This document shows, piece by piece, positions 11,676 through 51,176 of a DNA stretch of 64,000 nucleotides. The DNA lies in the IMG/VR virus record IMGVR_UViG_3300037067_018253, one strand, 5' to 3'. The position numbers were made by a program, and so were the translations under genes. Position 1 is the stretch's first letter; every line of letters starts with the position of its first letter. The notes beneath the pieces are model-generated. The model searched no databases and had not been told where the DNA came from. It worked only from the letters and a program-made list of their open reading frames with translations. Origin of the DNA: a virus.

Positions 11676-11676
11676 G

Positions 11677-12360
11677 TTATCCCCCCTTTGATTTCATAAA
11701 ATCGGGTAGCCTCTTTGGTCCACCACAGGTAGTACAGGGCTTTCCGGCATCAACAGCCTTACGTAATTTCGAGCAGTTACCGCTTTCCTTCGGGTATCTC
11801 TCAGTGTATTGTCCCGATTCTACAGCCTCTTTACTGCCTATATCCTGAATACTCTTTGCCCAGGCAGCTAGTTGTGTGTAAATTTCCGTATTCTTACCCT
11901 GGCGCGATGCGATTGGAATTGACTCGACTGCCAGTTTCTTTATCAGCCGGGAGTGTTTCGCCAGGCAATCACATGCTTTCCCTGCAATTTTTCCGCCAGC
12001 GGCTAAGTGTGCCTCCAGTACCGTCATTTCGTCTACAATGCTATCTATCTGGTATTGTAATGTCTCTGCATCGCTTACTCCGGACTCGGTAATTATATCC
12101 TCTTGCTTTGCTACTTTCACCGGGGGCATTATGCTATCCAGCGGGGAAACCGTGATTGAATTAACCCGCTGTCTTGTACCCCTCAGACTGATAGCCTCCC
12201 CCAATGAGTGGATATCCTCAGCCATCCCATGTATCAGTTTCGTGGCATCCTCCATGGGACCATGGAGCGGGTTTGCGTCCGCGATTATCTTAGATAACCG
12301 TGGTGGGCGCGGTAACGACGGTGGCCTCGGCAGGCCAAGCCTTTCGAATATTGAGGTCAT
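11677..12360 (-). CDS. hypothetical protein
   Basis: 227-aa ORF; C-terminal CxxC pair (CTTCGG). Confidence 0.4.
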   Translation of the reverse strand: MTSIFERLGLPRPPSLPRPPRLSKIIADANPLHGPMEDATKLIHGMAEDIHSLGEAISLRGTRQRVNSITVSPLDSIMPPVKVAKQEDIITESGVSDAETLQYQIDSIVDEMTVLEAHLAAGGKIAGKACDCLAKHSRLIKKLAVESIPIASRQGKNTEIYTQLAAWAKSIQDIGSKEAVESGQYTERYPKESGNCSKLRKAVDAGKPCTTCGGPKRLPDFMKSKGG

Positions 12361-12533
12361 AATTATTCCCCCTTTATGTTAATGTAGTCCAAAATAATGG
12401 TTTTAGTCAATAGTTTTAGTGGCTTCAGGCCAATCTTTCTTAGCTTGTCTTAGCAATTCTTCCAGTTGATACGTGACCCCAGTGTAAGACTTGTCTCCAT
12501 TGAATAGTTGTTCCGCTAATTTGCACAGTGGGC

Positions 12534-12630
12534 AGAAGAGCACAAACGAAATAGAAAAGAAAGCCCAAAAGGGCTTTGCCGTCTGTATCCCCAGTATTGA
12601 AATACGGGGTTTTAGACGGTGGGTGTTGAT
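12534..12630 (-). mobile_element. solo left end (LE) copy of the IS200/IS605-family element
   Basis: About 95 nt at roughly 90% identity to the reverse complement of 56360-56457 (LE with hairpin ccccagtattgaaatacgggg). Confidence 0.65.
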
Positions 12631-12727
12631 AAATTTCATTTTCTTCAATCACCATACATCCTTCGATTTTATATCCACAGTTAGTACACTCGAATATTTC
12701 CGTCACGGATAATATACCCTGCCATTT

Positions 12728-13189
12728 TCAATCCTTCCTGCAACTCAGGCATTTCCACTCTATCCTATCTTCGCGCCTATTAAAACTAAATGTCCATGCG
12801 GTAGGTCCAGTGCCCAGATTTTCCGTCTTGCCACAAGTAACACAGGTAACTGAAACCGGAGACATTTTGGGAGATACGTAGCCGCGCCAATCAACCTGCT
12901 TACCGGATATTAACTCCAGTTTCTTCCACGCCTGAACGCAGTGCTGGCACAGTTTCTTACCCCTATATTCTATCAGTAAGCTATCAACGTGGTTATCGCC
13001 ACATACCACACCACAAGCCTGACACTCAGGATGTTTTTTAACCGGAGATCCGCAAACATCGCAAACCCTGGTAACCTTGCGATACTCGGTGTAATTAATA
13101 CACCGCGTGGTGCCGCAATCGCCGTTTTTATTCCAGTGACACCCTGATACTATGCATTGATGTGTAGTAGCGTACAAGGTTACCTCCAC
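12728..13189 (-). CDS. Cys-rich multi-Zn-ribbon protein
   Basis: Numerous CxxC pairs across 153 aa. Confidence 0.45.
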   Translation of the reverse strand: MEVTLYATTHQCIVSGCHWNKNGDCGTTRCINYTEYRKVTRVCDVCGSPVKKHPECQACGVVCGDNHVDSLLIEYRGKKLCQHCVQAWKKLELISGKQVDWRGYVSPKMSPVSVTCVTCGKTENLGTGPTAWTFSFNRREDRIEWKCLSCRKD

Positions 13190-13193
13190 GTGC

Positions 13194-13490
13194 CTAGCGG
13201 TACTGGTTAAATTTTATTCCTGGTCTCTTGGTAATTGGGTTATTATCATCGCCGCCCCCATAAATCTGTATACGGGCAGCCGGCGTTACTGTCCCCTTTT
13301 TACCCAACTCCTTCCGGCAAGTGTCGCAGATTTTTATCTTGGCATGGAAGGGGCGGTCACCCCGTGTAATATCGCTGACATTTTCGGAGTAGAAAATCCT
13401 CTGGCAAATATCACACTGGGAAACTACTTTTATATCATCGTCATCCTGGTTGCCTGGTTCTACTACCTGCCTCATGGGGGACTCCTTCAC
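13194..13490 (-). CDS. Zn-ribbon protein
   Basis: CDICQ...CDTC. Confidence 0.4.
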   Translation of the reverse strand: MKESPMRQVVEPGNQDDDDIKVVSQCDICQRIFYSENVSDITRGDRPFHAKIKICDTCRKELGKKGTVTPAARIQIYGGGDDNNPITKRPGIKFNQYR

Positions 13491-13804
13491 CTATTTACTA
13501 TTTTTGGGGAATCGTTTTGCGCATTTGCCGGTTTTAATCCGAATGACCTCCGGGGGTAGCCCATATTTCTTTTCAAATGGCCCCACCTTGACATCACTCC
13601 GGTCTTTTATTACGGGCATATCCACACTCCTTGGTTATTTTAAAACCCACTTTAGCGGAAATATTTCTGCATTTTTCGGTAAGTAGAGTGGGTGCCTGGG
13701 TTGACCTGACTTAGTTAGCCCAAATATGAAGGCATCGGTGAACATTTTCATCACAATGTCGCCACGTCCCATGTACTCCCCATCATTTCCCCAGCATAGT
13801 ATGG

Positions 13805-14074
13805 TTATCTGACCTCATTCTTTTTGTATGCGACGGCTATTCTATCTACCAACTTACCAAACGTGGTCATATTATCGCCCAGCCACTCCATTTTCATTCG
13901 CATGGTAACATCATATCCAACCTCAACACCCTCCGGTATTTCCCGCAGGCTAGTATATTTTTTAACCAACTGTGCCAGGATAAAAGCGCGGCTGAATCCC
14001 CGGTCCAACATCCACTCGATATATTCCCGCACCTCATCCTTGTGTCCGTTGCCAGGTATACCGTTTTCATCCAT
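13805..14074 (-). CDS. hypothetical protein
   Basis: 89-aa ORF. Confidence 0.35.
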   Translation of the reverse strand: MDENGIPGNGHKDEVREYIEWMLDRGFSRAFILAQLVKKYTSLREIPEGVEVGYDVTMRMKMEWLGDNMTTFGKLVDRIAVAYKKNEVR

Positions 14075-14103
14075 GCATTAAACTCCTTGCTTCTATTGAG
14101 GCG

Positions 14104-15063
14104 TTAAGCCCACAGTTTTAAAACCGGATGATGCTCTAATACCAGCTTGTCCACTGTCTCCGGCGACTTCGTGTAATATGTGTCTGCAATTTCACCGCTA
14201 CTGGATATTTTCCACCGCAGAAATATGTGGGCGGCCAGTACCGGCTCCATTTTCAACTGCGGTAGCCCTGCAAAGGTATCCCTGATTGTTTCCGCCAGGT
14301 ACCGGCGGAATGAGTGCCAGTTTTTATGATACTGGTTTTCTACACCAGCTTTTTTGCAAATCCTTTTGAACATGGCGAACATGTAGAGTTTATTATGCGG
14401 AGTGTCAAAGTCACAGGCTTTTAAATGTGGCACTAATTCTTTTGCCAGCACCTGCCCGCGCTTCTCTCCGCCTTTCTCTGTATCGACAAAAATAGACATC
14501 CCGTTGTAATCTATGTCCCCATTCCTAACCCGCCACAGCTCGCCGGCGCGCAGACCATATACAGATGCGAGACACAGGTACGCAGTTTCATCAGTAGTGA
14601 GTTTCCCCGACCGAGCAGCTATAACCATGCTCTTAATTTCCCCTGCCGTAATAGATGGCTTGGTTTTATCCGATTCATCCACCCGCGGCATGTCCCTTTT
14701 ACCCCAATCCCACACCGGGGCACGTGTATTAATAGCCTTCAGAATCTTTGCGGTGGCGCTGGGGTCGTCTGGATTTATCTGCCCTATGACTTCCTCCCTC
14801 TCCACCTCATGTGCCGTCCTGGCCGCGTCGTAGACCCTCTTAACAGCACCCATCGCAAATCTAACCGTGGTCGGCGCATAGCCCTCTTTTTCAATTTTCT
14901 TTTTAAAACTGGTGGCCAGCGCTCCATCCCATTTCGATACGGGTATTTTTTCAGTATATTTCAGAAATTTGTCCATCCAGAAGGTCTGCACATTCACAGT
15001 GTCGTGGCTGGAATTACCGAGGCTCTTCAAACGTTGTGCGCGTATTGCTTTAGTTGTAACCAT
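14104..15063 (-). CDS. tyrosine recombinase / phage integrase
   Basis: N-terminal SAM-like domain; LRAGELWRVR box, HSFRRYLAET (HxxR), C-terminal ...DTYYTKSP tyrosine region. Confidence 0.7.
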   Translation of the reverse strand: MVTTKAIRAQRLKSLGNSSHDTVNVQTFWMDKFLKYTEKIPVSKWDGALATSFKKKIEKEGYAPTTVRFAMGAVKRVYDAARTAHEVEREEVIGQINPDDPSATAKILKAINTRAPVWDWGKRDMPRVDESDKTKPSITAGEIKSMVIAARSGKLTTDETAYLCLASVYGLRAGELWRVRNGDIDYNGMSIFVDTEKGGEKRGQVLAKELVPHLKACDFDTPHNKLYMFAMFKRICKKAGVENQYHKNWHSFRRYLAETIRDTFAGLPQLKMEPVLAAHIFLRWKISSSGEIADTYYTKSPETVDKLVLEHHPVLKLWA

Positions 15064-20796: not shown

Positions 20797-21306
20797 TTAT
20801 ACCCCCTTTTTAATTTGCTCCCATAGCTTCCGGTGCAACTCACGCAAATTAAAGACATCCTCCATATTGTAACGCAGAAGCATAGCCATGGAATCATTGT
20901 CCCCCTGTTGGTACTTTTGCCAGAGTTCGACAGCAACCTTCCCGTCTACATCCGGCAGGAGGCGTTTAATGCCAAACTGCTCCTGAATCTTCTTGAATCC
21001 GCCGTAAATGCCTTGGTTATGGCAGTAATCACACAGGTCTATATGCTTTACGTCCTCACCGGGAATGCTAAGATTGTATTTGGCATTTACAAATGGGATA
21101 TCGAAAGATGCGCCGTAATAGGTGTATATACGGGTTACCCCTTGAAGCCAATAGGTAATATTTTCCGTGGTTAAGGTCTTATCGTATAGTTGCACCAGGT
21201 TCTTGCCTTTATTACTGGATATCAACATCCCCAAAACTGTGATCAGGTTGTTTTCAGGATCAAGCCCGCTTGTTTCGATGTCTAAGTAGCAATCTACGTT
21301 CCACAT
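20797..21306 (-). CDS. DEDD-family 3'-5' exonuclease (DnaQ/epsilon-like)
   Basis: Exo I DIETSGLD, Exo III YNMEDVFNL. Confidence 0.65.
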   Translation of the reverse strand: MWNVDCYLDIETSGLDPENNLITVLGMLISSNKGKNLVQLYDKTLTTENITYWLQGVTRIYTYYGASFDIPFVNAKYNLSIPGEDVKHIDLCDYCHNQGIYGGFKKIQEQFGIKRLLPDVDGKVAVELWQKYQQGDNDSMAMLLRYNMEDVFNLRELHRKLWEQIKKGV

Positions 21307-21309
21307 GGT

Positions 21310-21540
21310 CTACCCCTTAACCTTTTCATTTAATTTATCCCCGGACCATACCGCCAGGCACTCTATGGAACAAAAATCCCGCTCCACCAGCTCTTCATTT
21401 TCAATATAGGTGGTACGGATCCATCCATCATCAGCGTACGGATACTTTTTAGGGTTCTCCAGATTGGGATATTGTGTTAATGCACGCGTCTCGCTCTTAC
21501 ATCCTTCGCGATCACATTTGTATACTTCTGAGTACGCCAT
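21310..21540 (-). CDS. small Cys-containing protein
   Basis: RBS aagggggtaacaaataATG; CDREGC...CSIEC. Confidence 0.4.
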   Translation of the reverse strand: MAYSEVYKCDREGCKSETRALTQYPNLENPKKYPYADDGWIRTTYIENEELVERDFCSIECLAVWSGDKLNEKVKG

Positions 21541-21566
21541 TATTTGTTACCCCCTTAAAAAAACTA

Positions 21567-21596
21567 TTGACAATTACAAACATTATCTGATAATAT
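21567..21596 (+). promoter_or_regulatory. sigma-70/sigma-A-type promoter (TTGACA-18 nt-TAATAT)
   Basis: Near-consensus hexamers read directly; divergent and partly overlapping the upstream region of 21310..21540. Confidence 0.4.
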
Positions 21597-21676
21597 AAAA
21601 GAGTCATCAGTTACCCTCGTCGGTTTTCCCTCTTATTAGACCTGAGCCGCTCGGACTTGTCCCCGGGCGGCTCAAA

Positions 21677-21865
21677 CTATTTCAATTCTTTTAAGCGGTT
21701 TATTTCAGATACGGGCACATACATAACGCCAGCAATACGTACCGGGATAAAAATACCATCCTTAGCCCATTGATATATTGTTTGGCGCGATACACTCATC
21801 TCCCCCGCGGCCTGCTGCACAGACATCAAATCATCAGTATTTACCTTGAACAATATTTCTACCAT
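21677..21865 (-). CDS. HTH_17 (excisionase/MerR-like) DNA-binding protein
   Basis: MSVSRQTIYQWAKDGIFIPVRIAG. Confidence 0.55.
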   Translation of the reverse strand: MVEILFKVNTDDLMSVQQAAGEMSVSRQTIYQWAKDGIFIPVRIAGVMYVPVSEINRLKELK

Positions 21866-22217
21866 CTAATACCCCTTGTTCCATTATCTTAATGCCTGCT
21901 TAACAGGCTGTCAAGTGGTTTTTATTGTCATTCGCAAACCTCATGATTTTAATTGGAGAACCTAGGAGAATTCGAAGCTAGAATAGCTCTTTGAACCAAG
22001 TCTACTTGTCACAAAGAATCTTGAGGAAAGTCGTAGTATCTTTACTTTCTTCTACCTGTTCTTATAATGTGGAAATACATCCAAGAGCGCGCAGGAAGGC
22101 ACACAGCGCAACCATAGGGATAAAACATAGAAAGATACTAGCCAGTGGTATATAGACCTGCTGGCGATGTTCTGTGGGGCTTAAGGTCTATTCCTTGCCA
22201 TGTTGGTGCCCAGTAGT

Positions 22218-22511
22218 TCAGGCTTTACCGTTTCCCTTGTCTTTGCCAAAGCAATTATCCATCCGGCGGTCCAGCCGGGCGATTCCCTCATTGACCTCTT
22301 GCTTTGTTTCCTTGATACCGTCATGGAACTCTCTTTTGGCGTTCGCCATCTCAGTCTGTAATACCAAGGTAGTGCCGGCCACTTCTTTTTCACAAGATGA
22401 AATGCGCCCTTCGAGTTTGCCCATACAGCCTGATATTTTCCAGACAGATCCAATAACGGTAAATATAATTCCGCTTCCAGTTCCGATAATGGCTATAGTT
22501 GCTGCGTCCAT
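22218..22511 (-). CDS. holin-like small membrane protein
   Basis: N-terminal TM segment TIAIIGTGSGIIFTVIGSVW followed by coiled-coil; immediately upstream of the peptidase. Confidence 0.35.
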   Translation of the reverse strand: MDAATIAIIGTGSGIIFTVIGSVWKISGCMGKLEGRISSCEKEVAGTTLVLQTEMANAKREFHDGIKETKQEVNEGIARLDRRMDNCFGKDKGNGKA

Positions 22512-22523
22512 GACTTTTCCTTT

Positions 22524-23222
22524 CTACTTGTCTACCATTTTCCAGATATCGCCGTTAGGTAGCACGTTCTTAGTGAACATCTTGTATGGCATGGTTGATA
22601 TTCCGTTCACACCCCACAGCAACCTACCCCATGAGTTAGCTACAAGCCACCCTATCTCATCCCACCCAATAATTCTGAAGGCATGACCGCCGGCATTATT
22701 ACCATGTGGTTCAGGGAACATAGCCTTGGCATTATTCCAACTTTCAAACCACAGGCAAGCCGCGACAATACTGCCGTACTGGTACAGCACCTGTTTTATC
22801 GCTTCATCAGTACTCTCCGGCCCCATCCGGTAGTAAGCCTGGATCGCCCAGTATGAATCAGGCTTTTTCTGGAAACACAGTGATCCCTTCTGCCGGCACC
22901 CTTGTTCCTGAAGTATTTTCATCACTACACGCGGATATGTGCCCGGGGTATCAGGTATGCCGTCTATCTTCTTGCATTCGTTGTATAGCCACAACCCGTC
23001 GAAATTAACACGTTGCTTCGATTGCAAGAACTCCTGGTCAGTCTTACATCCGGTTGCGGCAAAAGCGCTGCACGCCGGATCCCCATTCTGGTCGTATATA
23101 ACCGTGTCCGGCCAGACAGTGTACTTTTTGGGAAGAGGCAGCGCCTGGTAGATTAGCCGCCTTGCCTCAAAATCACGGCTATCGGGGATATCCTTGATCC
23201 ATCCAAATAATCTTTCAACCAT
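22524..23222 (-). CDS. papain-like (C1-type) cysteine peptidase, candidate lysin
   Basis: Q...C block YDQNGDPACSAFAATGC; His block GGHAFRIIGWD; Asn block ANSWG. Confidence 0.5.
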   Translation of the reverse strand: MVERLFGWIKDIPDSRDFEARRLIYQALPLPKKYTVWPDTVIYDQNGDPACSAFAATGCKTDQEFLQSKQRVNFDGLWLYNECKKIDGIPDTPGTYPRVVMKILQEQGCRQKGSLCFQKKPDSYWAIQAYYRMGPESTDEAIKQVLYQYGSIVAACLWFESWNNAKAMFPEPHGNNAGGHAFRIIGWDEIGWLVANSWGRLLWGVNGISTMPYKMFTKNVLPNGDIWKMVDK

Positions 23223-23902
23223 TATATTGCAAAATACTTTCTTTCTGATTGAAACACTTTATATAGTTGATTTACTGTGGTGGTTACTGACATGCGAAGC
23301 ATAACGATGTAACCATCAAAGGTTCTATTGAGTGTTGCAGTTCCAACTCTTGCCAATGCTCCAACATTTGGAGGCGAAGTGACTGCACCTACTACTGAGG
23401 TTACATCAGTAAAACCATTCTTATTACCAATGTAAAGCTTCCTGGCGACTGTATTTATATGTGCTACCACAAATTGCCAGGAATTCATAACAACAGAGTT
23501 GCCAGACGACTCTGTTGCTGAGTCGTGGTCAACCAAAACTCTTAGAATATTACCAGTAGAAACATAGAATGCATAACCATCATACGCAGTTGTTGCAGTG
23601 CTTTTTTCTATAATGCGACCTGATGAAGCTGCTCCTAATGTTCTCGGATAAATCCACCCATAGATAAAGCCACCTCGTGTGAATCTCATTGATGGTGAAT
23701 CAGGAATTTCACAGTAAGAAGTAGCACCATTGAAATCTCGTACAAATAATCCCGATGGCAGCCTCACCCATGTAACATTGCTGTGTGTGCCATTATTGTG
23801 CCACCGAGAATTATCTTCATAGGCTGAGGCTGGTGTCGCTATACCAGTGTAGACTCGCTCGTTTAAGACCAAATTTGTTACACTCATATAATTCCAAACC
23901 AC
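23222..23902 (-). CDS. LamG/ConA-like lectin-domain protein (paralog 4)
   Basis: DNSRWHNNGTHSNVTWVRLPSG...FDGYI; conserved C-terminus SERKYFAI. Confidence 0.55.
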   Translation of the reverse strand: MVWNYMSVTNLVLNERVYTGIATPASAYEDNSRWHNNGTHSNVTWVRLPSGLFVRDFNGATSYCEIPDSPSMRFTRGGFIYGWIYPRTLGAASSGRIIEKSTATTAYDGYAFYVSTGNILRVLVDHDSATESSGNSVVMNSWQFVVAHINTVARKLYIGNKNGFTDVTSVVGAVTSPPNVGALARVGTATLNRTFDGYIVMLRMSVTTTVNQLYKVFQSERKYFAI

Positions 23903-24708
23903 CGCTTTTCAGATTCAAAGTTATTGCGAATTTCTCCAACAGATAATACTCTTTTAGATACCTTTAATGGATGTAAAAATCCATCAAAACTAGCTGCACT
24001 AGCAGTATTATCACCGATGCGTAAATTTTCACTTGCATCAGATATAATAGCCCCTACTGGAGCTAAGGTCTCAGTGACTGTAATAGAATTTCCATTCAAT
24101 GTAAAAATAGGATTATTCGCAACATTAGAGCCATTATATGTAATCCCAATATGAGAATATTTATTTAATGGAATAACTCTATCGGATTCCCAAGTTGCCC
24201 ATCCACCTGTCCATAATACTGCAAGACCTAGTTTTACATATCCAGCAACTTCATCATAAACATAAGAATAAAATCCCAATGTTGCTAAATCACTTTTATC
24301 TATGATTCTACCAACGTCATTTTCTCCATCACTTAATGGATTTATCCATATAAGAATTGTTCCTCCAGTGATAAAAATATTCTGAATTGATGGTGAATCA
24401 GTTATTGTTATTCGACTCGAAGCTCCATTAAATGAATATAACCATTTTCCACTAGGTAGTCTTACTTGTGTTACATTAGTAAAGACGCCATTATTATGAT
24501 AACGACTTCTATCCACTAGACTCGCTGGTGGAGTAGAGTTACTATTATACCTAGCTGGATTTAGAACAATATTATCAGACATTGAACCACCTACGCTCAG
24601 ACTCATAACTTTTACCAGCATCATCAGAATTAAATAGATAATTATGTATCTCAGGTAATGCCATATACCCAGGAAGTCTCCTTGGGGTAGCTCCACCTCT
24701 AGCTCCAA
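23884..24708 (-). CDS. LamG/ConA-like lectin-domain protein (paralog 3)
   Basis: DRSRYHNNGVFTNVTQVRLPSG...FDGFL...SEKRWFGII; true start probably internal, around 24582-24606. Confidence 0.55.
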   Translation of the reverse strand: MELEVELPQGDFLGIWHYLRYIIIYLILMMLVKVMSLSVGGSMSDNIVLNPARYNSNSTPPASLVDRSRYHNNGVFTNVTQVRLPSGKWLYSFNGASSRITITDSPSIQNIFITGGTILIWINPLSDGENDVGRIIDKSDLATLGFYSYVYDEVAGYVKLGLAVLWTGGWATWESDRVIPLNKYSHIGITYNGSNVANNPIFTLNGNSITVTETLAPVGAIISDASENLRIGDNTASAASFDGFLHPLKVSKRVLSVGEIRNNFESEKRWFGII

Positions 24709-25276
24709 GCATGACTGTATTACCGACTGGATTCAGAATGTCCACAATGTTTACCAGAGTCATAACTACACCATTTAGATAAAATTCAATAGTTGAAGTC
24801 GCTATGTTCCAGACATGAATCCACTGGTTCCAACGAGTAGATAGTAATGCTGACCCTCCCAATATACCGACCGTATTGGCACCAATGCCGAGGTAAACTG
24901 CATCAAGAGTTTGACCATATCCTATAGTTATGTCTGCTGTGGTAGGAGTATTAAGGTCTTTATTAAATACCACATAATTATTTGCAAAGTTATTGAACTT
25001 TACCCAGGCTTTAAATGTCTGTTGGGTATTTAAGTATAAACTTGCTCCTGTTCCTAAAGTTATTTGGCTGGTTACACCGTCAAACGATATAGCGAAAAGA
25101 TCGGATGGTAATTGGCTCCATGTAGTACCTGCTGTAAATACTCCGTTGTTGTTATAACGAGAAGAATCAGACAATTCCAACGCAGGTGAAGTACTACCTG
25201 GAGGACTCCAGAATTTCTCACCTTGGAATACTATATTTGAGGCTTTAGACATTATAGAGCCTCCTCTCGGATTCAA
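24575..25276 (-). CDS. LamG/ConA-like lectin-domain protein (paralog 2)
   Basis: SDSSRYNNNGVFTAGTTWSQLPS...SERRWFNV. Confidence 0.55.
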   Translation of the reverse strand: MNPRGGSIMSKASNIVFQGEKFWSPPGSTSPALELSDSSRYNNNGVFTAGTTWSQLPSDLFAISFDGVTSQITLGTGASLYLNTQQTFKAWVKFNNFANNYVVFNKDLNTPTTADITIGYGQTLDAVYLGIGANTVGILGGSALLSTRWNQWIHVWNIATSTIEFYLNGVVMTLVNIVDILNPVGNTVMLGARGGATPRRLPGYMALPEIHNYLFNSDDAGKSYESERRWFNV

Positions 25277-25964
25277 AAATATGGAGTAACTGCGCTAAAT
25301 CTAATGCGTAGGTAAATATGCGTAATTTAGAGATGTAACCATCAAAGCCTCGGTCTACTGCAGCAGTTTGATTTCCAATTCTCGTTATCGAAGATACATT
25401 AGGGGGTAAAGATAATCCACCTGCGATGTTAGTAACATCACTAAAACCTTTAGCATTACCAGAATATATTTTACGGGCGGTACTATTAATATATACTACA
25501 CAAAACTGCCAAGAGTTAAGTATGATTGAATTTGCATTACTGATTGTTACCGCATCGTTATTTACTGATACTATCAAACTCCTTACATTGGTTACATTAT
25601 TAACTTGAAATCTATATCCATTTGTACCAAGTACATCACTGCCTTTATGGATAATGCGACCACCATTAGACCCTCCAAGAGTTCGTGGATAAATCCACCC
25701 TAGTATCATTCCACCACGTGTAAATCGCATACTTGGTGAATCAGGTATTTCTGCATACGCATCTAATGCACCGCCATTGCCATAGTCAGGAATCCATAAG
25801 TCGTTATTCGGAAATCCATTTAACTTATTTTGCTGGCTCCATGTGACATTAGTAAGCGCACCATTGTTACCCATCCTCGATGCGTCATATAAAGTAACAG
25901 CAGATGGGGATGCCCCACCTGCTCTACTGGCGACATCTAATATTTCACTTGAACTTAGCTTCAT
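25245..25964 (-). CDS. LamG/ConA-like lectin-domain protein (paralog 1)
   Basis: DASRMGNNGALTNVTWSQ...FDGYI...SERRLYNV. Confidence 0.55.
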   Translation of the reverse strand: MKLSSSEILDVASRAGGASPSAVTLYDASRMGNNGALTNVTWSQQNKLNGFPNNDLWIPDYGNGGALDAYAEIPDSPSMRFTRGGMILGWIYPRTLGGSNGGRIIHKGSDVLGTNGYRFQVNNVTNVRSLIVSVNNDAVTISNANSIILNSWQFCVVYINSTARKIYSGNAKGFSDVTNIAGGLSLPPNVSSITRIGNQTAAVDRGFDGYISKLRIFTYALDLAQLLHIFESERRLYNV

Positions 25965-26164
25965 TTTGTCTCGCTTGAAATATCTTTTAACTCCGGTACA
26001 TCGATATCAATGGTATCTTTGGTATTAGTCAGATAATTAAGAGCCCCGTTAACACGCTGTAATTCTGATTCAAGAGATGCCTTTTCCCTCGAGAGTTGTT
26101 TTATCTGAGATTCAATGCCTTCTCGATATTTTGAAATCGCATTTTTAGTTACATCCGATAACAT
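25961..26164 (-). CDS. small coiled-coil protein
   Basis: 67-aa heptad-rich ORF. Confidence 0.35.
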   Translation of the reverse strand: MLSDVTKNAISKYREGIESQIKQLSREKASLESELQRVNGALNYLTNTKDTIDIDVPELKDISSETK

Positions 26165-26175
26165 CTCAATACTCC

Positions 26176-26604
26176 TTAATATGTAATGGCATCATATGTA
26201 TGATACAAAACTTTGACTATTGCAGCAGAACCACCTACTGAATCCATGATTTTTGCTCTCAGCCTGCTATTGCGTGGAATTATTATTGTCTGCATCGGCA
26301 TTGAGTGTGAGCCTAATAATAAATTTGTTCTAGCAAAAGTAAGGCGACCGCACTCAGTATCAGCAGCTCCATAGTACAACACAAGTTCATAATCAGCATT
26401 TACACTCTCTCCTGATACCACTATCCAGTGAATATCGAATGGCAATGCCACTGCATTGGCTGCAATTATATCGTTGCTAAAGTTACCGAGTGTCCACGCT
26501 GCGACATTTGATGTGACTGTAATACCAGCTGCCCCACTGGGCGCAACCATTTGTGGAGAATGAATATGGTCACATAGTTCATGCAAATTACCTATCGGTG
26601 ACAT
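26176..26604 (-). CDS. structural-module hypothetical protein
   Basis: Operon context. Confidence 0.4.
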   Translation of the reverse strand: MSPIGNLHELCDHIHSPQMVAPSGAAGITVTSNVAAWTLGNFSNDIIAANAVALPFDIHWIVVSGESVNADYELVLYYGAADTECGRLTFARTNLLLGSHSMPMQTIIIPRNSRLRAKIMDSVGGSAAIVKVLYHTYDAITY

Positions 26605-26607
26605 ATT

Positions 26608-27096
26608 TTACCTCTTTGCGTCAAAGATTTCATAAGTTAAAGTATTCCAACCGCCACCAATGGCAGCTTGTTGGGTAGTAACCCGTACCCCGTAGACGCT
26701 AAATAATCTACCTGGCGTCACATCTGTATTCGTATTGCGCGGGAATGGGACGAGTATTGGTACTGGCAATGCTGCAGCTAAGAATGTTTCAGTATATAGT
26801 AATCTCAATGTGCCCGCTGGTACTATTGAGCCATAGACTCGTATCGTAGTGTCCTCACCAGCGCCAAAGTTAAGTCCTGTCCAATCGATGTAGCCACCAT
26901 AAAACTCAAATGGAGTGGTGCTAGTCTCAAGATAGAGTTGCTGTTCTGCACCAGTCATTAGCAATGTGCCTGATTGCGGCGAGCGAGCTAAATCAAGCTG
27001 TTGGTCGAGCCTGTCTGCTATAGATTGGAGAGTTTCAGCCCCGCCTTGTATTAGCAACTCAAGCCAGTAAATACGCTGCAAGTTAGTTTCTGACAT
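26608..27096 (-). CDS. structural-module hypothetical protein
   Basis: Operon context. Confidence 0.4.
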   Translation of the reverse strand: MSETNLQRIYWLELLIQGGAETLQSIADRLDQQLDLARSPQSGTLLMTGAEQQLYLETSTTPFEFYGGYIDWTGLNFGAGEDTTIRVYGSIVPAGTLRLLYTETFLAAALPVPILVPFPRNTNTDVTPGRLFSVYGVRVTTQQAAIGGGWNTLTYEIFDAKR

Positions 27097-27106
27097 ATCC
27101 CTCTCC

Positions 27107-27793
27107 CTAATTTCTCACTATGAACTCGGGGTATATTTTCACCACGCCGATCGCCGGTGTAGACGCACCCCCGGCGCCATTTAAAATATAAAAGTTCGGG
27201 AACATCGCCTGGTCCGGTAGGTTTGCAACATGGTCCGCTATCTGTGTTCCGTTCAGGAAGAATACCACGTGCCCACGGTATATCTCCATCCTGAAATTAT
27301 TTCTATTTGTAAGAGTTTCACCAAACCCGGTATTAACGGTTTCCACACCACCAAGGTCCGTGACAGTTTGAAGCGCATTTCCAGCGCCGATGAGGGCAAC
27401 CCCGATTATATCATTAGTCGTTCTCGTGCTTACCACTGTCGGCGTGAAACCGAAGAATGTTGACACATTACTCATGTTGGCAACATTAGTAAGCTGCATA
27501 ACCCATTCAAATATAATCTTCTTGATTATCGTGCTGGTGTTGTATATTGTCGGCGCGACACTCCACGCATTATTACCAACGAGCCGGCAATTTTCACTGG
27601 CCGCTGGAACTGCCGTAGCCCGCTGCATGCCACTGCTTGCGCTAATAGCCCATGCGGCCCCAGTGAGTGGTTGTGTAAGCGTCCAGCGTAATTCAGAAAT
27701 ACCCACCGGGCTTTGCCATGTTTCGATAAGCTGCTCGGTGGGGGACTGAATGGTATTAAGAATATCCTTTAATGCCCCAATTTCATCTATCAT
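27107..27793 (-). CDS. structural-module hypothetical protein
   Basis: Operon context. Confidence 0.4.
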   Translation of the reverse strand: MIDEIGALKDILNTIQSPTEQLIETWQSPVGISELRWTLTQPLTGAAWAISASSGMQRATAVPAASENCRLVGNNAWSVAPTIYNTSTIIKKIIFEWVMQLTNVANMSNVSTFFGFTPTVVSTRTTNDIIGVALIGAGNALQTVTDLGGVETVNTGFGETLTNRNNFRMEIYRGHVVFFLNGTQIADHVANLPDQAMFPNFYILNGAGGASTPAIGVVKIYPEFIVRN

Positions 27794-27795
27794 TA

Positions 27796-28482
27796 CTAAA
27801 CCCCAAACAAATCACGTTCGAGTTGGAATAGCTGATATGCTTCTGCCGCACTCAACTGCCGTCCCCATATCCGAGGACGGTACATATAACCGGAGTACTG
27901 AGGCGCGCCACCGGCATTATTACATCCGAAGTACATATTTCTTACCGCGGCGGCTGGATTCACATGTACGCCTACGCTTGAATACGCTGGCTCCGCCCCG
28001 TTTATATAGATGTGACAACTTGCCCCGGAACGAGTCGCCATAATTAAATACCACTGGTTAATCAATATTACGTTTACAGTGAATGTGCTTTGCCCTGTTC
28101 CACCTTGGCGCGTGAGAAGAGATACCTTGCCTTCGACGCTAACATTCATTGACCAACCATCGGTAATCGTTGCGCCCCGGTTCATTAACGGGTATCCCAA
28201 CAGGGCGCCGGTATTTATCCACACCATGAGGCTGAAATCCCCAGCCGTAAAATTCAGGTCAGCCGTTGCAGCCGCCGGGCACTGCAAGTAATCCGGGTGA
28301 GCTGGATTGAAAGACAAATATGGCGTGCCGTTAGCCAGGGATGCCCATGACGGCGTGCCGGTTAGCGTATGCTGGTGATGCGGCTTGGCGTTATCGTTCG
28401 TCAATACCCCGGTTTCTTCCATGAAAGGAAGGTCCAGCAGTATTTGCGAGTATAGTGATTGTTTATCATATCCAATTGTCAT
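27796..28482 (-). CDS. LamG/ConA-like lectin-domain protein (paralog 5)
   Basis: HHQHTLTGTPSWASLANGTPYLSF...FSLMVWI...LERDLFGV. Confidence 0.5.
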   Translation of the reverse strand: MTIGYDKQSLYSQILLDLPFMEETGVLTNDNAKPHHQHTLTGTPSWASLANGTPYLSFNPAHPDYLQCPAAATADLNFTAGDFSLMVWINTGALLGYPLMNRGATITDGWSMNVSVEGKVSLLTRQGGTGQSTFTVNVILINQWYLIMATRSGASCHIYINGAEPAYSSVGVHVNPAAAVRNMYFGCNNAGGAPQYSGYMYRPRIWGRQLSAAEAYQLFQLERDLFGV

Positions 28483-28488
28483 GTAAAT

Positions 28489-29199
28489 TTAAACCCCGTA
28501 ATGCGAATGTTCTAATTGAAAGATGGTTTTCATTTCCATCGCATTTAGTTCCCGTCCCCATATCCTCAATTGCCCCATGTATCCATCCCACCCGTTAGTA
28601 ATCTCATTATTTTGTATGCCCACCAGCAGTTTGTTGCCACCGGCGCAGGATACAGGGTCAATCAATGTTCCGATGGTATCCGCCACATCACCATTGATGT
28701 AAAATTGCCCCGAAGCGCCATGGCGCGTTACGCCAGCAAGGTGCCACTGAGATGGAATAAATGCGCCTACCGCGCTAATTCCGGTATGGGACCCCAACTG
28801 GCTGGTCCGGAGTGCCAGTGTATTTACACCCGGGAACATATAGAACTCAAATCCATCGACATCAACAGCCCCCTGGCACACGATTTCCTGTGCCCCTCCG
28901 AGTGCATTATTGTATACCCATGCCAGGAAGGTAAAATCTCCATTAGTGAAATTAACATCAGCACTCTCAGCGCCAGGGCACTGTAAATACTTGGAACCAC
29001 CACTGAGGTCCAGATATGGCGCACCGCCTGGTAGTGAAGCCCACGCTGCGCCACCTGTAAGGGTTAATTCATGATGAGCCTTGGCGCGGTCATAAGTAAC
29101 CAGCCCGCTCATTTCCGTGAAGGGTAAGTCTACCAGCATCTGGTAGCCTATGCCGGTCTTGTCGTAGGCTATCTTCACGATCTCAATAGTACCTCCCAA
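28489..29199 (-). CDS. LamG/ConA-like lectin-domain protein (paralog 6)
   Basis: HHELTLTGGAAWASLPGGAPYLDL...FTFLAWV...LEHSHYGV. Confidence 0.5.
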   Translation of the reverse strand: MGGTIEIVKIAYDKTGIGYQMLVDLPFTEMSGLVTYDRAKAHHELTLTGGAAWASLPGGAPYLDLSGGSKYLQCPGAESADVNFTNGDFTFLAWVYNNALGGAQEIVCQGAVDVDGFEFYMFPGVNTLALRTSQLGSHTGISAVGAFIPSQWHLAGVTRHGASGQFYINGDVADTIGTLIDPVSCAGGNKLLVGIQNNEITNGWDGYMGQLRIWGRELNAMEMKTIFQLEHSHYGV

Positions 29200-29873
29200 T
29201 CGTAATCAAGCGCATTTCCAACCAGCCTGGTGAGAGTCACCTTGACACCAAAGCGGTTTGGCTCCAGCTCTACATTTTTAAGCGGCATAGATTGCGCGCC
29301 GATTAACGTAATCGTGTCTTTGAGTATGAAATTGCCGCCGGCTTTAATCCGGTAATATACTTTCAGCGCAATCGTTTCTGCCGCCGTATTATTAGTGAAA
29401 TCAATAAGAACCCTTAACGGCTCAAATACCCCAGCTGGGGCATTGTTGATATAAATATTTTGTTCTGTACCGTCTGTGGTTAAAGTGCCCCCGGTTTCAT
29501 TTAACACAAGGATAGAGGCAATCAAGTTGATCAGGTTGTTATATATATCAGTTAGCATGCCAGAGCTATTAGGGGAAGGTACGTTGACCTTGTATCTTAC
29601 GCCGGCTGGTACCTGTCCGCCCTTAAAGGCAGCGTCAACTGTTATTTCACCAGTGAGGTTATTAAATGCAGTAGCCGAATGAACATCGATTCTAGTCGGG
29701 TCATCGTAATATATTTCTATTGAGAAACCAACGAATGTATTAGCGCCATATCCAATTAAATTGGCATCAATAATACTCATTCCGCCAATGGCGCCAGCCA
29801 CAGTGGTTAAACCCTGGTATGCAACCGTGGAATGAAAAACGCTAACTAACTCATCTATAGGTGGTCTTTGCAT
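29175..29873 (-). CDS. structural-module hypothetical protein
   Basis: Operon context. Confidence 0.4.
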   Translation of the reverse strand: MQRPPIDELVSVFHSTVAYQGLTTVAGAIGGMSIIDANLIGYGANTFVGFSIEIYYDDPTRIDVHSATAFNNLTGEITVDAAFKGGQVPAGVRYKVNVPSPNSSGMLTDIYNNLINLIASILVLNETGGTLTTDGTEQNIYINNAPAGVFEPLRVLIDFTNNTAAETIALKVYYRIKAGGNFILKDTITLIGAQSMPLKNVELEPNRFGVKVTLTRLVGNALDYDWEVLLRS

Positions 29874-29878
29874 ATTTT

Positions 29879-30526
29879 CTAATTCCCCAGCGCACTTATA
29901 ACTTCAAGGTCAGTTATAGCCTGTGCAGCATCAAGATTTTCAATTCTTACCTTGGCATACATTGGCGCCGTGTCATAATGCCGTGTTTCCCTTAAAACAC
30001 CCCCAGCCGCAAATCCACAATCAAATGAATCCCAGTCATAATTATCATAGTCAGCGCCAGGTATCGAGTATACATCACCAAGATTCCACCTGTTGGTAGT
30101 ACCACCTAGCAGTGCCGCTACAGTCACGGTAGTCTCAGTATTCCCAGTGATAACGCCAGAACTGCCATCGGTAACATTCTGGATTGTCAAGCCGATTAAT
30201 TCATTGGCGACAAAATGTGCAGCTGCATCCGTCATAACGGTAAGGTTCATAGCGGCCGTATGTGTTCCGGCACTGGCGTTGGTGGTAGACGTTACCACGT
30301 GTACCCTTGCGCCCCGGGTGGCCGCAGCATTATATCTGCCCTTTATGGTCAATGTTAACGTGCGCTTACCTGCCTGCATGTTAATAGCAGTACAGTTAGC
30401 TAAAGTAGTAATGGCAGTAGCCGCAAGTGGGGTTAAATCAATTACCGTTGTTGCGGTTTTTACCCCGGGTATGCCACCGCCACCAAATACAGCCAGTAGT
30501 ACTCTGGTTAATACAGATTCCAACAT
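29879..30526 (-). CDS. Thr/Ala-rich beta-type structural protein
   Basis: Composition; operon context. Confidence 0.4.
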   Translation of the reverse strand: MLESVLTRVLLAVFGGGGIPGVKTATTVIDLTPLAATAITTLANCTAINMQAGKRTLTLTIKGRYNAAATRGARVHVVTSTTNASAGTHTAAMNLTVMTDAAAHFVANELIGLTIQNVTDGSSGVITGNTETTVTVAALLGGTTNRWNLGDVYSIPGADYDNYDWDSFDCGFAAGGVLRETRHYDTAPMYAKVRIENLDAAQAITDLEVISALGN

Positions 30527-30530
30527 AGCT

Positions 30531-30701
30531 TATTTATCCTTATCTTTTATCCACGGCCAAAAAATACCGAGTCCGCATGGCAGTGGAGGGCCACTCCACG
30601 GCGGCATGGGTATTAGCTTCTGTATACCCACGGGTTTTTCCGACTTGAATATATTAGCCACGACTTTTTCGGTGTCAACCACACCATATGGGGTTACTAT
30701 T
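30531..30701 (-). CDS. 56-aa protein ending in PPWSGPPLP...WPWIK motif (absent from the ORF track)
   Basis: Manual translation MSIIVTPYGVVDTEKVVANIFKSEKPVGIQKLIPMPPWSGPPLPCGLGIFWPWIKDK; C-terminus is paralogous to that of 40456..41250. Confidence 0.4.
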
Positions 30702-30722
30702 ATACTCATGGATGCACCAACC

Positions 30723-31409
30723 TTAATTGTATTTCTTTTTACCCCGACCTAATCGAGTGGTATCGTAAACATAATACTTTCTTCCGCAGGAATGGCACGT
30801 CACTATAGTAGTGATAACCGGCTCGATCTGCTTGTTATTACAGAACGGGCATATAGTCTCTTTATTATCTGGAAATGGCGGAGTGCCTATTGCTTCGAGT
30901 ATTGCTGCGTATGCGAAAGCACCCTCTAAGGCGCCGCCACCCCTATTTAACACCACTATATCTATGGTATGAGGTAAGGCTGCTGTGGGGTCCAGTGTCA
31001 AGGTGCTGTAAGTATAGACTGGATTGGAATATACATCACTGCCACTCTCAGTAATTCCAGGTATAGCGACAAGCAGGCCATCGAAATATAAAAATTGCTC
31101 ACAATCTTCCGATGAGTTCCAGTCTTTTTGCACCATAGTAAGTGCATATCCAGCTGGTATGTTATATGGCATTACAATACCAGTATCTTGTGCGTAAAGA
31201 TGCGCGTTTGCTCCTATGGCTAGTTGTGGTCGTACCCATGTAATCGGATATGGGAATGGAACAGAGTTTGTGAATAATATTCCAAACAGCACTAACTGCT
31301 GGTTGAATTTAAGACTAATACCAGACCTCATTTGGCCTAAACTTATTTCGCGCGTGTAGTCTGGCTTGCCAATTCCCCTGGTAGTTACAGTAATCGGTTG
31401 TTCAGCCAT
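30723..31409 (-). CDS. structural-module protein with C-terminal Zn-ribbon
   Basis: CPFCNNK...CHSCGRKYY. Confidence 0.4.
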   Translation of the reverse strand: MAEQPITVTTRGIGKPDYTREISLGQMRSGISLKFNQQLVLFGILFTNSVPFPYPITWVRPQLAIGANAHLYAQDTGIVMPYNIPAGYALTMVQKDWNSSEDCEQFLYFDGLLVAIPGITESGSDVYSNPVYTYSTLTLDPTAALPHTIDIVVLNRGGGALEGAFAYAAILEAIGTPPFPDNKETICPFCNNKQIEPVITTIVTCHSCGRKYYVYDTTRLGRGKKKYN

Positions 31410-41258: not shown

Positions 41259-41498
41259 CTAGATTATTTTTCTTCCGGTAAGTACCTCAAACTCACGGCG
41301 AAGTTCCTCGGTAAACCCGCGCTTCCTGATTGTCACCCATGGGGGCTCTTCCTGAATACGTCTGACTGCGCGGGTAAAGAAACCAGGCCATGAAATATCC
41401 CACGAATCCGGCAACGGGGGTCCTTTGGATGGTGAGGTCGGTTTTAGAAGTATCTCTGCAATTTGCAGTACAGTCGCCTGTTTATTTGTTACTGGCAT
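41259..41498 (-). CDS. small protein with GPPLP...W.WPG motif
   Basis: SKGPPLPDSWDISWPGFF. Confidence 0.35.
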   Translation of the reverse strand: MPVTNKQATVLQIAEILLKPTSPSKGPPLPDSWDISWPGFFTRAVRRIQEEPPWVTIRKRGFTEELRREFEVLTGRKII

Positions 41499-49604: not shown

Positions 49605-49606
49605 TA

Positions 49607-51166: not shown

Positions 51167-51176
51167 GAGGATTTAC

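Follow-up and report, generated by a model that had tools for sequence, protein, structure and literature searches.

An uncultivated temperate-type phage has expanded to six copies a stand-alone LamG gene that pairs with a jelly-roll gene in related loci

An uncultivated, temperate-type phage (IMG/VR record IMGVR_UViG_3300037067_018253), with a possible host among the Chloroflexota, has six genes encoding LamG-domain proteins, which represent the expansion of a LamG gene that pairs in relatives with a gene for a jelly-roll (JR) protein. The founding LamG gene is the obligate downstream partner of this conserved JR gene. A viral origin is supported by other genes of the 64,000-nucleotide stretch of DNA analysed here (the window), which encode Rep_O, a DnaC-like protein, an integrase, a holin and DNA methyltransferases. 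The six LamG genes are placed immediately before lysis-type genes, in an apparent host-recognition region. All six open reading frames, the proximal pair E and F and the distal array A to D, are present on the minus strand where an earlier note on this DNA had placed them. The genes discussed below are as follows.

JR protein g29175, 29175..29873, minus strand: N-terminal beta-barrel, helix and C-terminal 8-stranded jelly roll; upstream of LamG E
LamG E, 28489-29178, minus strand: 229 aa, ending LEHSHYGV; Pfam E 4.8e-18; proximal JR-partner type
LamG F, 27796-28482, minus strand: 228 aa, ending LERDLFGV; Pfam E 5e-16; second proximal type, of an old lineage that differs from E
g27107, 27107..27793, minus strand: 228 aa; N-terminal "MIDEIG..." as in the DGR target of locus L008 and many JR proteins
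g26608, 26608..27096, minus strand: 162 aa; divergent second JR paralog
g26176, 26176..26604, minus strand: 142 aa, beta-rich; GC3 0.315; opens the low-GC3 island
g25961, 25961..26164, minus strand: 67 aa; coiled coil-like by eye; directly upstream of the distal LamG array
LamG A, 25245-25964, minus strand: 239 aa, ending SERRLYNV; Pfam E 5.9e-13; GC3 0.275
LamG B, 24575-25252, minus strand: 225 aa, ending SERRWFNV; Pfam E 1.5e-8; most divergent copy
LamG C, 23884-24582, minus strand: 232 aa, ending SEKRWFGII; Pfam E 1.2e-12; GC3 0.15
LamG D, 23222-23887, minus strand: 221 aa, ending SERKYFAI; Pfam E 1.1e-8
Peptidase_C1 (papain-family) protein, 22524..23222, minus strand: Pfam E 3.7e-7; phrog_16701 "peptidase", E 1.1e-12; putative lysis enzyme at the end of the late operon
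97-aa protein, 22218..22511, minus strand: hydrophobic N-terminal segment; holin-like by position only

Fold and paralogy of the LamG proteins

Starts shorter than the longest open reading frames are favoured for four of the genes (ATG at 25252, 24582 and 23887 for B, C and D, and GTG at 29178 for E), the choice being based on the N-termini of homologs and on independent gene calls on the same contig. All six proteins match PF13385 (Laminin_G_3) in Pfam at 35.4 to 66.2 bits (E 4.8e-18 to 1.5e-8; gathering threshold, 27.6 bits), and each consists of one complete Laminin_G_3 unit without an additional domain. A profile of the six matched solved LamG domains, namely 4qvs (2.5e-9) and pappalysin-1. 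The AF2 model of LamG E (pLDDT 84.4, pTM 0.85) is a ConA/LamG beta-sandwich of 16 strands with a C-terminal helix, and Foldseek returned 561 BFVD and 395 PDB matches to it at E<=1e-3. The LamG/ConA-like beta-sandwich proposed in the earlier note is thus borne out by the Pfam matches of all six proteins, the model of E and its fold matches in BFVD and the PDB; by homology, A to D and F are predicted to share the sandwich of E. Orthologs of LamG E on other contigs are 44 to 55% identical to it. No trimeric fibrous shaft, coiled coil or beta-helix was seen in the AF2 secondary structure of LamG E or in the Pfam matches of the six LamGs, an anchoring domain apart from the binding domain is absent, each protein being one unit from end to end, and no conserved ligand site could be assigned in the LamG sequences.

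The paralogy of the six proteins is confirmed by BLASTP E-values well past chance, both within the distal array (A/D, 5.8e-62, with 44% identity over the alignment; C/D, 5.7e-31; A/C, 2e-15; B/C, 2e-10) and in comparisons involving E (E/F, 1e-50; A/E, 1.9e-11; D/E, 1.3e-10), and pairwise identity among the six ranges from 15 to 48%. The central regions are divergent, as had been claimed: mean pairwise identity falls to 17 to 20% in alignment columns 121-180, from 29 to 36% in columns 41-120, whereas the C-terminus reaches 34%. A DxSRxxNNG pattern had been ascribed to the whole set; it is found in A to D but not in E and F, which have D-x-A-K-x-H-H, and the Asp alone is invariant across the six. 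Nor do the D-x-S, W..LPSG and FDG elements make up a special scaffold, being the ordinary N-terminal part of a LamG_3 unit.

Pairing with the JR gene and genomic context

The stop codon of g29175 and the GTG start codon of LamG E overlap by 4 nt (GTGA), and the two genes are therefore probably translationally coupled. Across 58 related loci, a LamG open reading frame of ~230 aa lies directly after 52 of 56 JR genes; the four JR genes without a downstream LamG are three at contig ends and the second JR gene of locus L009. At the gene junctions read, stops and starts overlap or nearly abut. The JR gene is found on 51 IMG/VR contigs, again in favour of a viral origin, and the JR-LamG order is present in L004, L005, L007, L008 and L009. 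We define the JR-partnered LamG subfamily as LamG proteins of ~230 aa starting within a few nucleotides of the stop of a g29175-family gene. LamG E belongs to it; F, A, B, C and D are further copies that do not lie directly behind a JR gene. One LamG copy is found in 49 loci, two in 4, four in 2 and six in the window. The earlier note attributed the array to duplication and divergence, and the NJ tree upholds this in part. A and D grouped in 100 of 100 bootstraps and are the only clear recent duplication among the six, but E and F did not group (3/100) and are old, separate lineages, each clustering with the partner LamGs of other phages (those of L007, L048 and L060 in the case of F), and A to D fall in an older "accessory" clade that includes LamGs of other phages.

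The distal array has a GC3 of 0.15-0.30, against 0.46 +/- 0.075 for other genes, C having the lowest value in the window. The stop of g25961 overlaps the start of LamG A (ATGA). The divergent JR paralog g26608 matches a JR HMM built without it (E 1.1e-4) and is 52% identical to a 164-aa gene at the equivalent position in L009. No Pfam, PHROG or PDB match was obtained for g27107, no match in searches for g26176, and no sequence match between g25961 and its positional counterpart in L009 (68 aa). In L009, a homing endonuclease lies within the LamG array.

Three observations are consistent with a host-recognition setting: a DGR target in one relative, weak matches of neighbouring genes in relatives, and lysis-type genes downstream of the LamGs. 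In L008, the JR-LamG pair is immediately followed by the target gene of a true DGR, with a reverse transcriptase downstream, VR and TR of 113 nt, and 25 of 29 mismatches at TR adenines; this target is a different, 513-aa protein. Upstream neighbours in relatives give weak or faint beta-helix, BNR and Glug matches. LamG arrays are followed by holin or lysis-type genes, the LamG region in L005 and L009 by holin or small proteins with hydrophobic N-termini; the 97-aa protein of the window had no PHROG match. A second gene of the holin family, at 43627-43935, is located far upstream, so that the lysis cassette has no clean boundary. Recognisable capsid, portal, terminase and tail genes are lacking both from the window and from the relatives, and the label of tail region therefore depends on gene order, on the DGR target and on the weak neighbour matches. 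The window itself carries no DGR, in agreement with the earlier note: no reverse transcriptase was found in searches with Pfam and/or PHROGs that covered nearly all window open reading frames of at least 75 aa, and positions 22000-30000 contain no adenine-biased repeat pair, the repeats there reflecting paralog similarity only.

The C-terminal motif

The six C-terminal strings are exactly as previously read. Their description as near-identical is apt within A to D; across all six, the common elements are limited to the Glu, an aromatic residue and a terminal aliphatic residue. The motif had been taken for an anchor to a common virion site, a reading that its placement and distribution do not support in this form: it is only moderately conserved, lies in the terminal alpha-helix of LamG E (residues 213-227, a block with pLDDT 93-96 in the AF2 model) rather than a free tail, is absent from the invariant columns and is carried by 19 of the 52 partner LamGs of relatives. 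The E[RK]xx[FY]G[VIL] ending of the helix is confined to a single clade, unlike in other stand-alone viral LamGs, and a similar signature, Y-x-S-E-F-x-K-Y, is found in some internal LamG repeats of giant proteins.

The motif might also be a nucleotide-level artefact, the last codons holding the Shine-Dalgarno sequence and start of the next gene and serving no protein function. LamG A ends in GAGAGGAGGctctataATG, so that the ATG of LamG B sits within its last codons, 7 nt past AGGAGG; LamG B ends in ...AGGTGGttcaATG, C and D each end in an overlap with the start of the gene behind them, and two "GV-stop" ends in L009 read GGAGTATGA, with the next ATG inside. Against this, the residues are kept despite synonymous changes (S as tcc, tct or tca; E as gag or gaa; R as agg, cgt, aga or cgg), the conserved W, F and Y cannot encode a Shine-Dalgarno sequence, and the motif is retained where a gap precedes the next gene. 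The first basic position is Arg in 8 of 10 LamGs of the window and L009, and AGR is used in 6 of these 8 versus a background of 0.50, a difference that is not significant. These observations largely refute an artefact as the sole cause, which we regard as highly improbable; the Shine-Dalgarno and start overlap may be a secondary constraint on the E-R-R codons.

Possible role and comparison with known systems

On an even balance of probabilities, we propose that LamGs A to F are virion-borne accessory lectins docking on JR proteins. Some proteins with LamG domains carry a virion structural or tail annotation, including those of Synechococcus phage S-PM2 and Pseudomonas phage SCUT-S3. The JR protein and its divergent paralog g26608 would serve as an adaptor attached to the virion, within the tail or the host-recognition apparatus, and each LamG would dock on JR by way of its conserved pole, the end of the sandwich at which N-terminal strands and C-terminal helix come together. 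The variable central strands and loops would point outward and, to judge from the fold family, bind host surface glycans or proteins. The set has expanded to six, the proximal E and F plus the accessory A to D, which may give the particle several binding specificities. A to D, g26176 and g25961 are foreign-looking in composition and were probably imported or exchanged as a cassette, the A/D pair having arisen by duplication after the putative import.

In an alternative that we consider unlikely, JR would be a jelly-roll protein that cements or decorates the head, and the LamGs would be lectins facing outward from the head that adhere, Hoc-like, to environmental or host glycans instead of binding receptors at the tail; the fold match of JR is generic, and capsid cement proteins are among the matches. 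Strict synteny in which a small gene is translationally coupled to a structural gene ahead of it is also the layout of fibre/chaperone gene pairs (for example lambda stf-tfa, Mu S-U and T4 gp37-gp38), and the LamG after JR could be a chaperone, or an assembly protein of the tail-fibre type, that the finished virion does not retain, with the extra copies serving other fibres. This is improbable: A to D are consecutive, without a client gene between them, LamG domains are present in proteins annotated as virion structural, and the LamG fold is a binding module, no fibre chaperone with this fold being known to us. We think it very unlikely that A to D are separately encoded cell-envelope-binding subunits that target the downstream papain-like lysis peptidase, as in a multi-subunit endolysin. 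The LamG D stop does overlap the peptidase start (TAATG), the peptidase has a catalytic domain only, and lysis-type genes directly adjoin the distal array in the window, as they probably do in L009, but in 52 loci the E-type LamGs go with JR rather than with lysis genes, and A to D have no homology to known endolysin binding subunits. Tail-fibre genes usually lie just ahead of lysis cassettes, and the adjacency of LamG and lysis genes is therefore uninformative.

Docking of accessory lectins on JR, the reading we favour, has partial parallels among phages. As in CBA120 (TSP1-4) and Klebsiella phage K64-1 (depolymerases), which have tandem multiple receptor-binding proteins, the LamGs are paralogous candidate host-binding proteins encoded side by side near lysis genes, in a copy number that varies between relatives; the proteins of those two phages are beta-helix tailspikes that form trimers and share a conserved N-terminal adaptor, whereas the LamGs are ~25-kDa single domains without shaft or adaptor. 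The JR-LamG gene order resembles fibre/tip-protein pairs such as that of T2/T6-type gp38, a small tip adhesin encoded directly after the fibre gene, and by analogy LamG may cap JR and set specificity; LamG and gp38 have no sequence or fold relation. We offer only tentatively the broader view that JR-LamG is an undescribed plug-in adhesin system of a large uncultivated phage group, possibly on Chloroflexota, in which a virion jelly-roll adaptor would take interchangeable LamG lectins by a conserved pole, made up of the N-terminal strands and of the C-terminal helix with its E[RK]xx[FY]G[VIL] ending, and six genes, partly a low-GC cassette, would yield a mixed, bet-hedging glycan-binding repertoire. 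If so, the system would be a functional analogue of the diversified lectins of Streptomyces umbrella toxin particles, the UmbA lectin domains of which include one laminin_G_3 family (PMC13274773; bioRxiv 10.1101/2025.04.24.650519). Those particles carry diversified lectins of several specificities on a common scaffold, a likeness to the LamGs that is by analogy only; they are not phages, their scaffold and attachment domains differ, and we claim no homology.

The best solved structural match of LamG E is the HCN lectin-like jelly-roll subdomain of the receptor-binding domains of tetanus and botulinum neurotoxins (Foldseek E ~3e-11, query-normalised TM 0.65-0.71, 10-16% identity). Like LamG E, HCN is a sandwich with a helix after it; it belongs to a large toxin and is linked to the phage LamGs neither by evolution nor by function. 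Domain and fold are common to A to F and other PF13385 family members, including "ConA-like" proteins of 220-240 aa from uncultured Caudovirales, and many uncharacterised stand-alone viral LamG proteins are of similar size. To our knowledge, there are no functional data for any of these stand-alone proteins. Six such genes are in themselves a useful lead rather than a new kind of system; what distinguishes A to F from other stand-alone viral LamGs is that their genes are separate, closely packed and linked to that of a jelly-roll partner. Giant multi-LamG proteins carry 5-29 LamG_3 units per polypeptide. Their repeat is the whole ~220-aa unit, D-x-S strands and terminal helix included, the internal repeats match profile positions ~9 to 228, and a minority of units carry YQSEFQKY, similar to the helix signature of A to F. 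In the giant proteins the units are fused in one chain, whereas in A to F each unit has its own gene and start codon.

The LamG family and its fold

Six stand-alone LamG genes, A to F, lie on the minus strand of the window, with A to D forming a distal array and E and F lying proximal to it. Their limits were taken from gene calls made independently for this contig in a different sample, from the N-termini of homologs, and from the junction sequences.

LamG genes of the window
28489-29178, minus strand, LamG E, 229 aa, GTG start
27796-28482, minus strand, LamG F, 228 aa
25245-25964, minus strand, LamG A, 239 aa
24575-25252, minus strand, LamG B, 225 aa
23884-24582, minus strand, LamG C, 232 aa
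23222-23887, minus strand, LamG D, 221 aa

All six products pass the gathering score of the Pfam family Laminin_G_3 (PF13385; E values from 4.8e-18 to 1.5e-8), and a profile of the six paralogs matches solved LamG domains (4qvs at 2.5e-9 and also pappalysin-1). All-against-all BLASTP showed one family with two subfamilies, A to D (A versus D, 5.8e-62; C versus D, 5.7e-31; A versus C, 2e-15; B versus C, 2e-10) and E plus F (1e-50), with matches across the subfamilies between A and E (1.9e-11) and between D and E (1.3e-10). ORF calls, Pfam, and BLASTP together bear out the six paralogous LamG ORFs that an earlier note, made from the sequence alone, had flagged here, and the C-terminal strings it listed are the same as ours. 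Its description of the central regions as divergent also holds, mean pairwise identity being lowest in the centre (17-20%) compared with the N-terminal third (29-36%) and the C-terminus (34%). The family HMM found no seventh copy among window ORFs of at least 80 aa. Because the paralogs are 15-48% identical, synonymous sites are saturated. Two further samples contain this contig with 1 and 4 base differences from the window, all outside the LamG genes. An enzymatic role (glycanase or lyase of ConA-like fold) was discarded: the Pfam matches are to LamG_3 only, and to no catalytic family.

The structure predicted for E with AF2 from 15 homologs (pLDDT 84.4, pTM 0.85) consists of a beta-sandwich and, after it, an alpha-helix spanning residues 213-227, supporting, for E, the LamG fold that had been proposed. 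Foldseek searches with this model (E<=1e-3) returned 561 viral matches from BFVD, showing that LamG/ConA-like proteins are common in phage metagenomes, and 395 from the PDB. The best BFVD matches are LamG/ConA-like, and many are stand-alone proteins of 220-240 aa from uncultured Caudovirales; the best solved match is the lectin-like HCN subdomain of clostridial neurotoxins. A to F belong to Laminin_G_3 by sequence and, going by the E model, by fold. Databases already contain large numbers of stand-alone viral LamG proteins, which to our knowledge are functionally uncharacterised.

A search of 1.84 billion representatives with the LamG profile gave 227,675 matches, the top ones being giant proteins with 5-29 internal LamG units that align at profile positions ~9 to 228. 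Since these repeats span nearly the entire profile, the whole ~220-aa protein is the domain unit, and it takes in both the 'D-x-S...W..LPSG...FDG scaffold' and the terminal helix; as a guide to function these matches were uninformative. Each of A to F is one such unit with no separate anchor domain, and the E model and a reading of the N-termini revealed no shaft or signal peptide, in contrast to classical tail-fibre and tailspike receptor-binding proteins, which have a separate anchor domain and a trimeric shaft. Nor are A to F members of the class of diversity-generating retroelement (DGR) targets. They are paralogous, single-domain proteins of lectin fold, conserved at one pole and variable in the centre.

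Near-obligate pairing with a jelly-roll gene

Directly upstream of E lies the window member of a conserved jelly-roll (JR) gene family, g29175 (29175-29873, minus strand), and E starts on its stop codon (GTGA). g29175 has >255 homologs but falls in no Pfam family; over the C-terminal ~115 aa, sequences from different metagenomes are 50-60% identical and share the signature 'TETGGTxTTDGTEQNVYINNAPAGVF...IDFTN.TA.ET...YYRI'. A PDB sequence search with the JR profile found no relative. From g29175 through the peptidase gene that follows the arrays, every gene abuts or overlaps the next, and a promoter and terminator scan of 21000-31000 gave no intergenic signal above shuffled background.

In all relatives with gene calls examined (L004, L005, L007, L008, and L009), a LamG of ~230 aa follows the JR gene. 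A scan of IMG/VR placed the JR family on 51 contigs, adding 51 viral loci, and over the 58 loci, 52 of 56 JR genes have a LamG ORF directly after them; the four exceptions are three genes at contig ends and the second JR gene of L009. One LamG ORF is present in 49 loci, two in 4, and four in 2, counts that are lower bounds because many loci are on short contigs; relatives show one to four copies against six in the window, the maximum seen. These results establish the near-obligate pairing and close coupling of LamG with the JR gene and its expansion in this phage. Pairing so close to invariant, together with growth to six genes in a lineage whose structural genes are unrecognisable, is what is new here.

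Between F and A lies a second, divergent JR paralog, the small minus-strand gene g26608 (E 1.1e-4 with a JR HMM from which it was left out), which is 52% identical to the L009 gene at the same position. The gene order in L009 runs JR, LamG, JR2, three further genes, a 68-aa gene, and LamG, and continues with a homing endonuclease, two LamGs, and small proteins with hydrophobic N-termini, an order that mirrors the window. Comparison by hhalign of two other genes of this interval, g27107 with the LamG profile and g26176 with the JR profile, detected no relation, and PDB sequence searches with g44233, g37584, and g27107 yielded nothing useful.

An N-terminal motif, 'MID[LEI]IG.[LI][KR].[IL]', opens a number of proteins of this region, from various phages, that are otherwise dissimilar (window 27107-27793, minus strand; L008:11394; L007:11731 and 13037; L009:11394; proteins P0048, P0053, and P0136), among them a DGR target in L008 and many stand-alone JR proteins. 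Judged from sequence, it looks like a common N-terminal attachment helix bearing interchangeable distal domains.

The C-terminal motif and the origin of the repertoire

The conserved C-terminus reads S-E-[RK]-[RK]-x-[FY]-x-[VI] in A to D and L-E-[HR]-x-x-[FY]-G-V in E and F, and in the E model it falls at the end of the terminal helix, in a block with pLDDT of 93-96. LamGs of other contigs repeat it (e.g., ERHWFGV, ERALYGV, and ERDWFGV). The strict form occurs in 19 of 52 JR-partner LamGs and the core E[RK]x[WFLY][FYW] in 22 of 52, alternative ends being HRLLYRLGYP, ELIKGWL, or EKRWFE. It is missing from P0019, the sole outside relative of A and D, and from the invariant alignment columns. Among 859 LamG repeats internal to giant proteins, 18 have a similar helix signature, Y-Q-S-E-F-Q-K-Y, which cannot be a free end there. 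The earlier note had suggested that each member attaches to a common virion site through the motif; nothing shows that it is the virion anchor. It is a clade-specific ending of a structural helix and might form part of an interface.

The final codons of each of A to D also hold the Shine-Dalgarno sequence and/or the start codon of the next gene, as at the A/B junction (GAGAGGAGGctctataATG), and L009 has similar junctions at LamG ends. Such an overlap is what one would expect if the motif were purely an artefact of translation signals, an embedded ribosome-binding site and nothing more. However, the first basic position is Arg in 8 of 10 LamGs read (window and L009) and 6 of those 8 codons are AGR, not significantly different from the background of 0.50; the conserved aromatics are left unexplained; and the motif is kept in the protein despite synonymous codon changes. 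We regard this explanation as largely refuted and the least credible of those considered.

In a neighbor-joining tree of 31 LamGs, A and D form a solid recent pair (bootstrap, 100/100), whereas A+D+C (36/100) and A to D as a whole (7/100) are unsupported. E and F do not pair (3/100): the E group contains partner LamGs from L009 and L004, the F group those from L007, L048, and L060. A to D fall within an 'accessory' clade, for which no bootstrap value covers the whole, with distal copies from L009, L004, L036, and L047. The second LamG of L004 joins an E-like N-terminus to the D-x-S-K-Y-H-N-N-G motif of A to D. A low-GC3 island at 23222-26604 comprises A to D and two small genes, g25961 and g26176, with values of 0.15-0.32; GC3 is 0.46 +/- 0.075 in other genes and reaches 0.51-0.57 in E, F, and the peptidase gene on either side. 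The distal array of L009 shows a milder GC3 dip and contains a homing endonuclease, which hints at cassette mobility:

L009:15146-15889, NUMOD3-domain homing endonuclease, between the first and second LamG of the distal array

No reverse transcriptase was found among the scanned window ORFs (nearly all those of at least 75 aa), and no TR/VR pair in 22000-30000, in agreement with the earlier view that no DGR lies behind A to F. That view attributed the array to duplication and divergence, which fits the local duplication of A and D. The tree, the island, and the L009 array indicate that the repertoire also draws on old paralog lineages and, probably, cassette exchange.

Genomic setting and possible role

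The element resembles a phage: its genes include those for Rep_O, a DnaC-like ATPase, a clamp-loader subunit, a tyrosine integrase, ParA, two DNA methyltransferases, and a holin-family protein, and the JR family is present on IMG/VR contigs. The window may be part of a larger genome, because contigs of relatives reach 91-130 kb. Searches with Pfam, PHROGs, tblastn, and PDB sequences recognised no capsid, portal, terminase, or tail gene. The DNA of 22001-30000 had no match among 50,697 phage records; by tblastn, g37584 and g34847 had none among phage records either, and E had only a weak one, to a tail protein of Pseudomonas phage SCUT-S3. A genome scan with the E-family alignment was also negative. 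PHROG and Pfam searches on the neighbouring late genes gave almost nothing beyond a dockerin, an epimerase, a CxxC domain, and one holin.

In L008, the gene directly after the JR-LamG pair is a genuine DGR target of 513 aa with a 113-nt VR at its 3' end; 25 of 29 VR/TR mismatches are at TR adenines, and the TR lies upstream of an RVT_1 gene.

DGR of L008 (91-kb contig), 11394-14694
12817-12929, VR
13336-13448, TR
13591-14694, RVT_1 gene

In relatives, genes upstream show beta-helix, BNR, and Glug matches that are weak or faint. After the array come, in the window, a papain-family peptidase and a small hydrophobic protein; in L005 and L009 the corresponding place is taken by a holin or by small hydrophobic proteins. 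The DGR target, these neighbours, and the lysis-type genes suggest that the JR-LamG pair sits at the host-recognition end of the late operon.

One joint reading has, in our judgement, about an even chance of being correct. JR proteins would be virion-attached adaptors in the host-recognition apparatus, LamGs would dock on them via the pole holding the N-terminal strands and C-terminal helix, and the variable LamG part would bind host surface glycans or proteins, giving several specificities. A to F may work like accessory adhesins; multi-copy host-binding gene sets are a known theme. The fold likenesses of JR, to XepA, YomS, and parts of tailspike structures, are generic, and it might instead be a cement protein on which LamGs decorate the head. 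This seems unlikely. That the LamGs are non-virion assembly factors we consider improbable, and BFVD matches of E include a Synechococcus phage S-PM2 protein annotated as virion structural. The peptidase downstream could use them as envelope-binding subunits, for which we see a slimmer chance still.

One LamG subfamily is thus almost always paired with a conserved, unannotated jelly-roll gene in dozens of viral contigs, and its copy number can grow from one to six. Pairing and expansion yield a concrete, testable hypothesis, with JR as adaptor and the LamGs as exchangeable lectins, that bears on host recognition in phages without recognisable structural genes. If true, it would add a modular lectin-type adhesin design to known receptor-binding architectures and help to annotate many 'hypothetical' genes; if wrong, the finding reduces to a paralog family of a very common domain. 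Two genome-collection contigs with a JR gene (L063 and L064) belong to MAG bins of Anaerolineales and Dehalococcoidales, a weak hint that the hosts of this phage group are Chloroflexota, a phylum difficult to culture.

The sole candidate lysis enzyme adjoining the array (22524-23222, minus strand) is a single-domain papain-family protein (Peptidase_C1) and not a recognised muramidase or amidase; one might speculate that this unusual choice relates to protein-rich envelopes of the suspected hosts. A 102-aa protein of holin family phrog_1299 (E 1.2e-14) is encoded (43627-43935, minus strand) 20 kb upstream of the peptidase and small hydrophobic protein at the operon's end, so the lysis genes may be split, or two holin-type genes may be present. 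The holin gene lies within ~20 kb of co-oriented late genes (26000-46253, minus strand) without a capsid, portal, terminase, or tail match in Pfam, PHROG, PDB, or the phage database, midway along which are an NAD-dependent epimerase (42070-42984) and a dockerin protein (39403-40446).

The motif 'GPPLP-x(5-9)-WPW/WPG' recurs in four minus-strand products (30530-30709, 40456-41250, 41259-41498, and the dockerin protein), sitting C-terminally in two, N-terminally in the dockerin protein, and internally in a 79-aa protein; a CARDB protein (L007:16867-17391) has the GPPLP part N-terminally as well. It could be a shared docking peptide. On the plus strand, a module at 46576-58488 encodes ParA, a Band 7/SPFH protein, two DNA methyltransferases (47429-48988 and 55078-56382), a PAPS-reductase-like protein (50016-50765), a transposase (phrog_506; 56468-57601), and a radical SAM protein (57598-58488).
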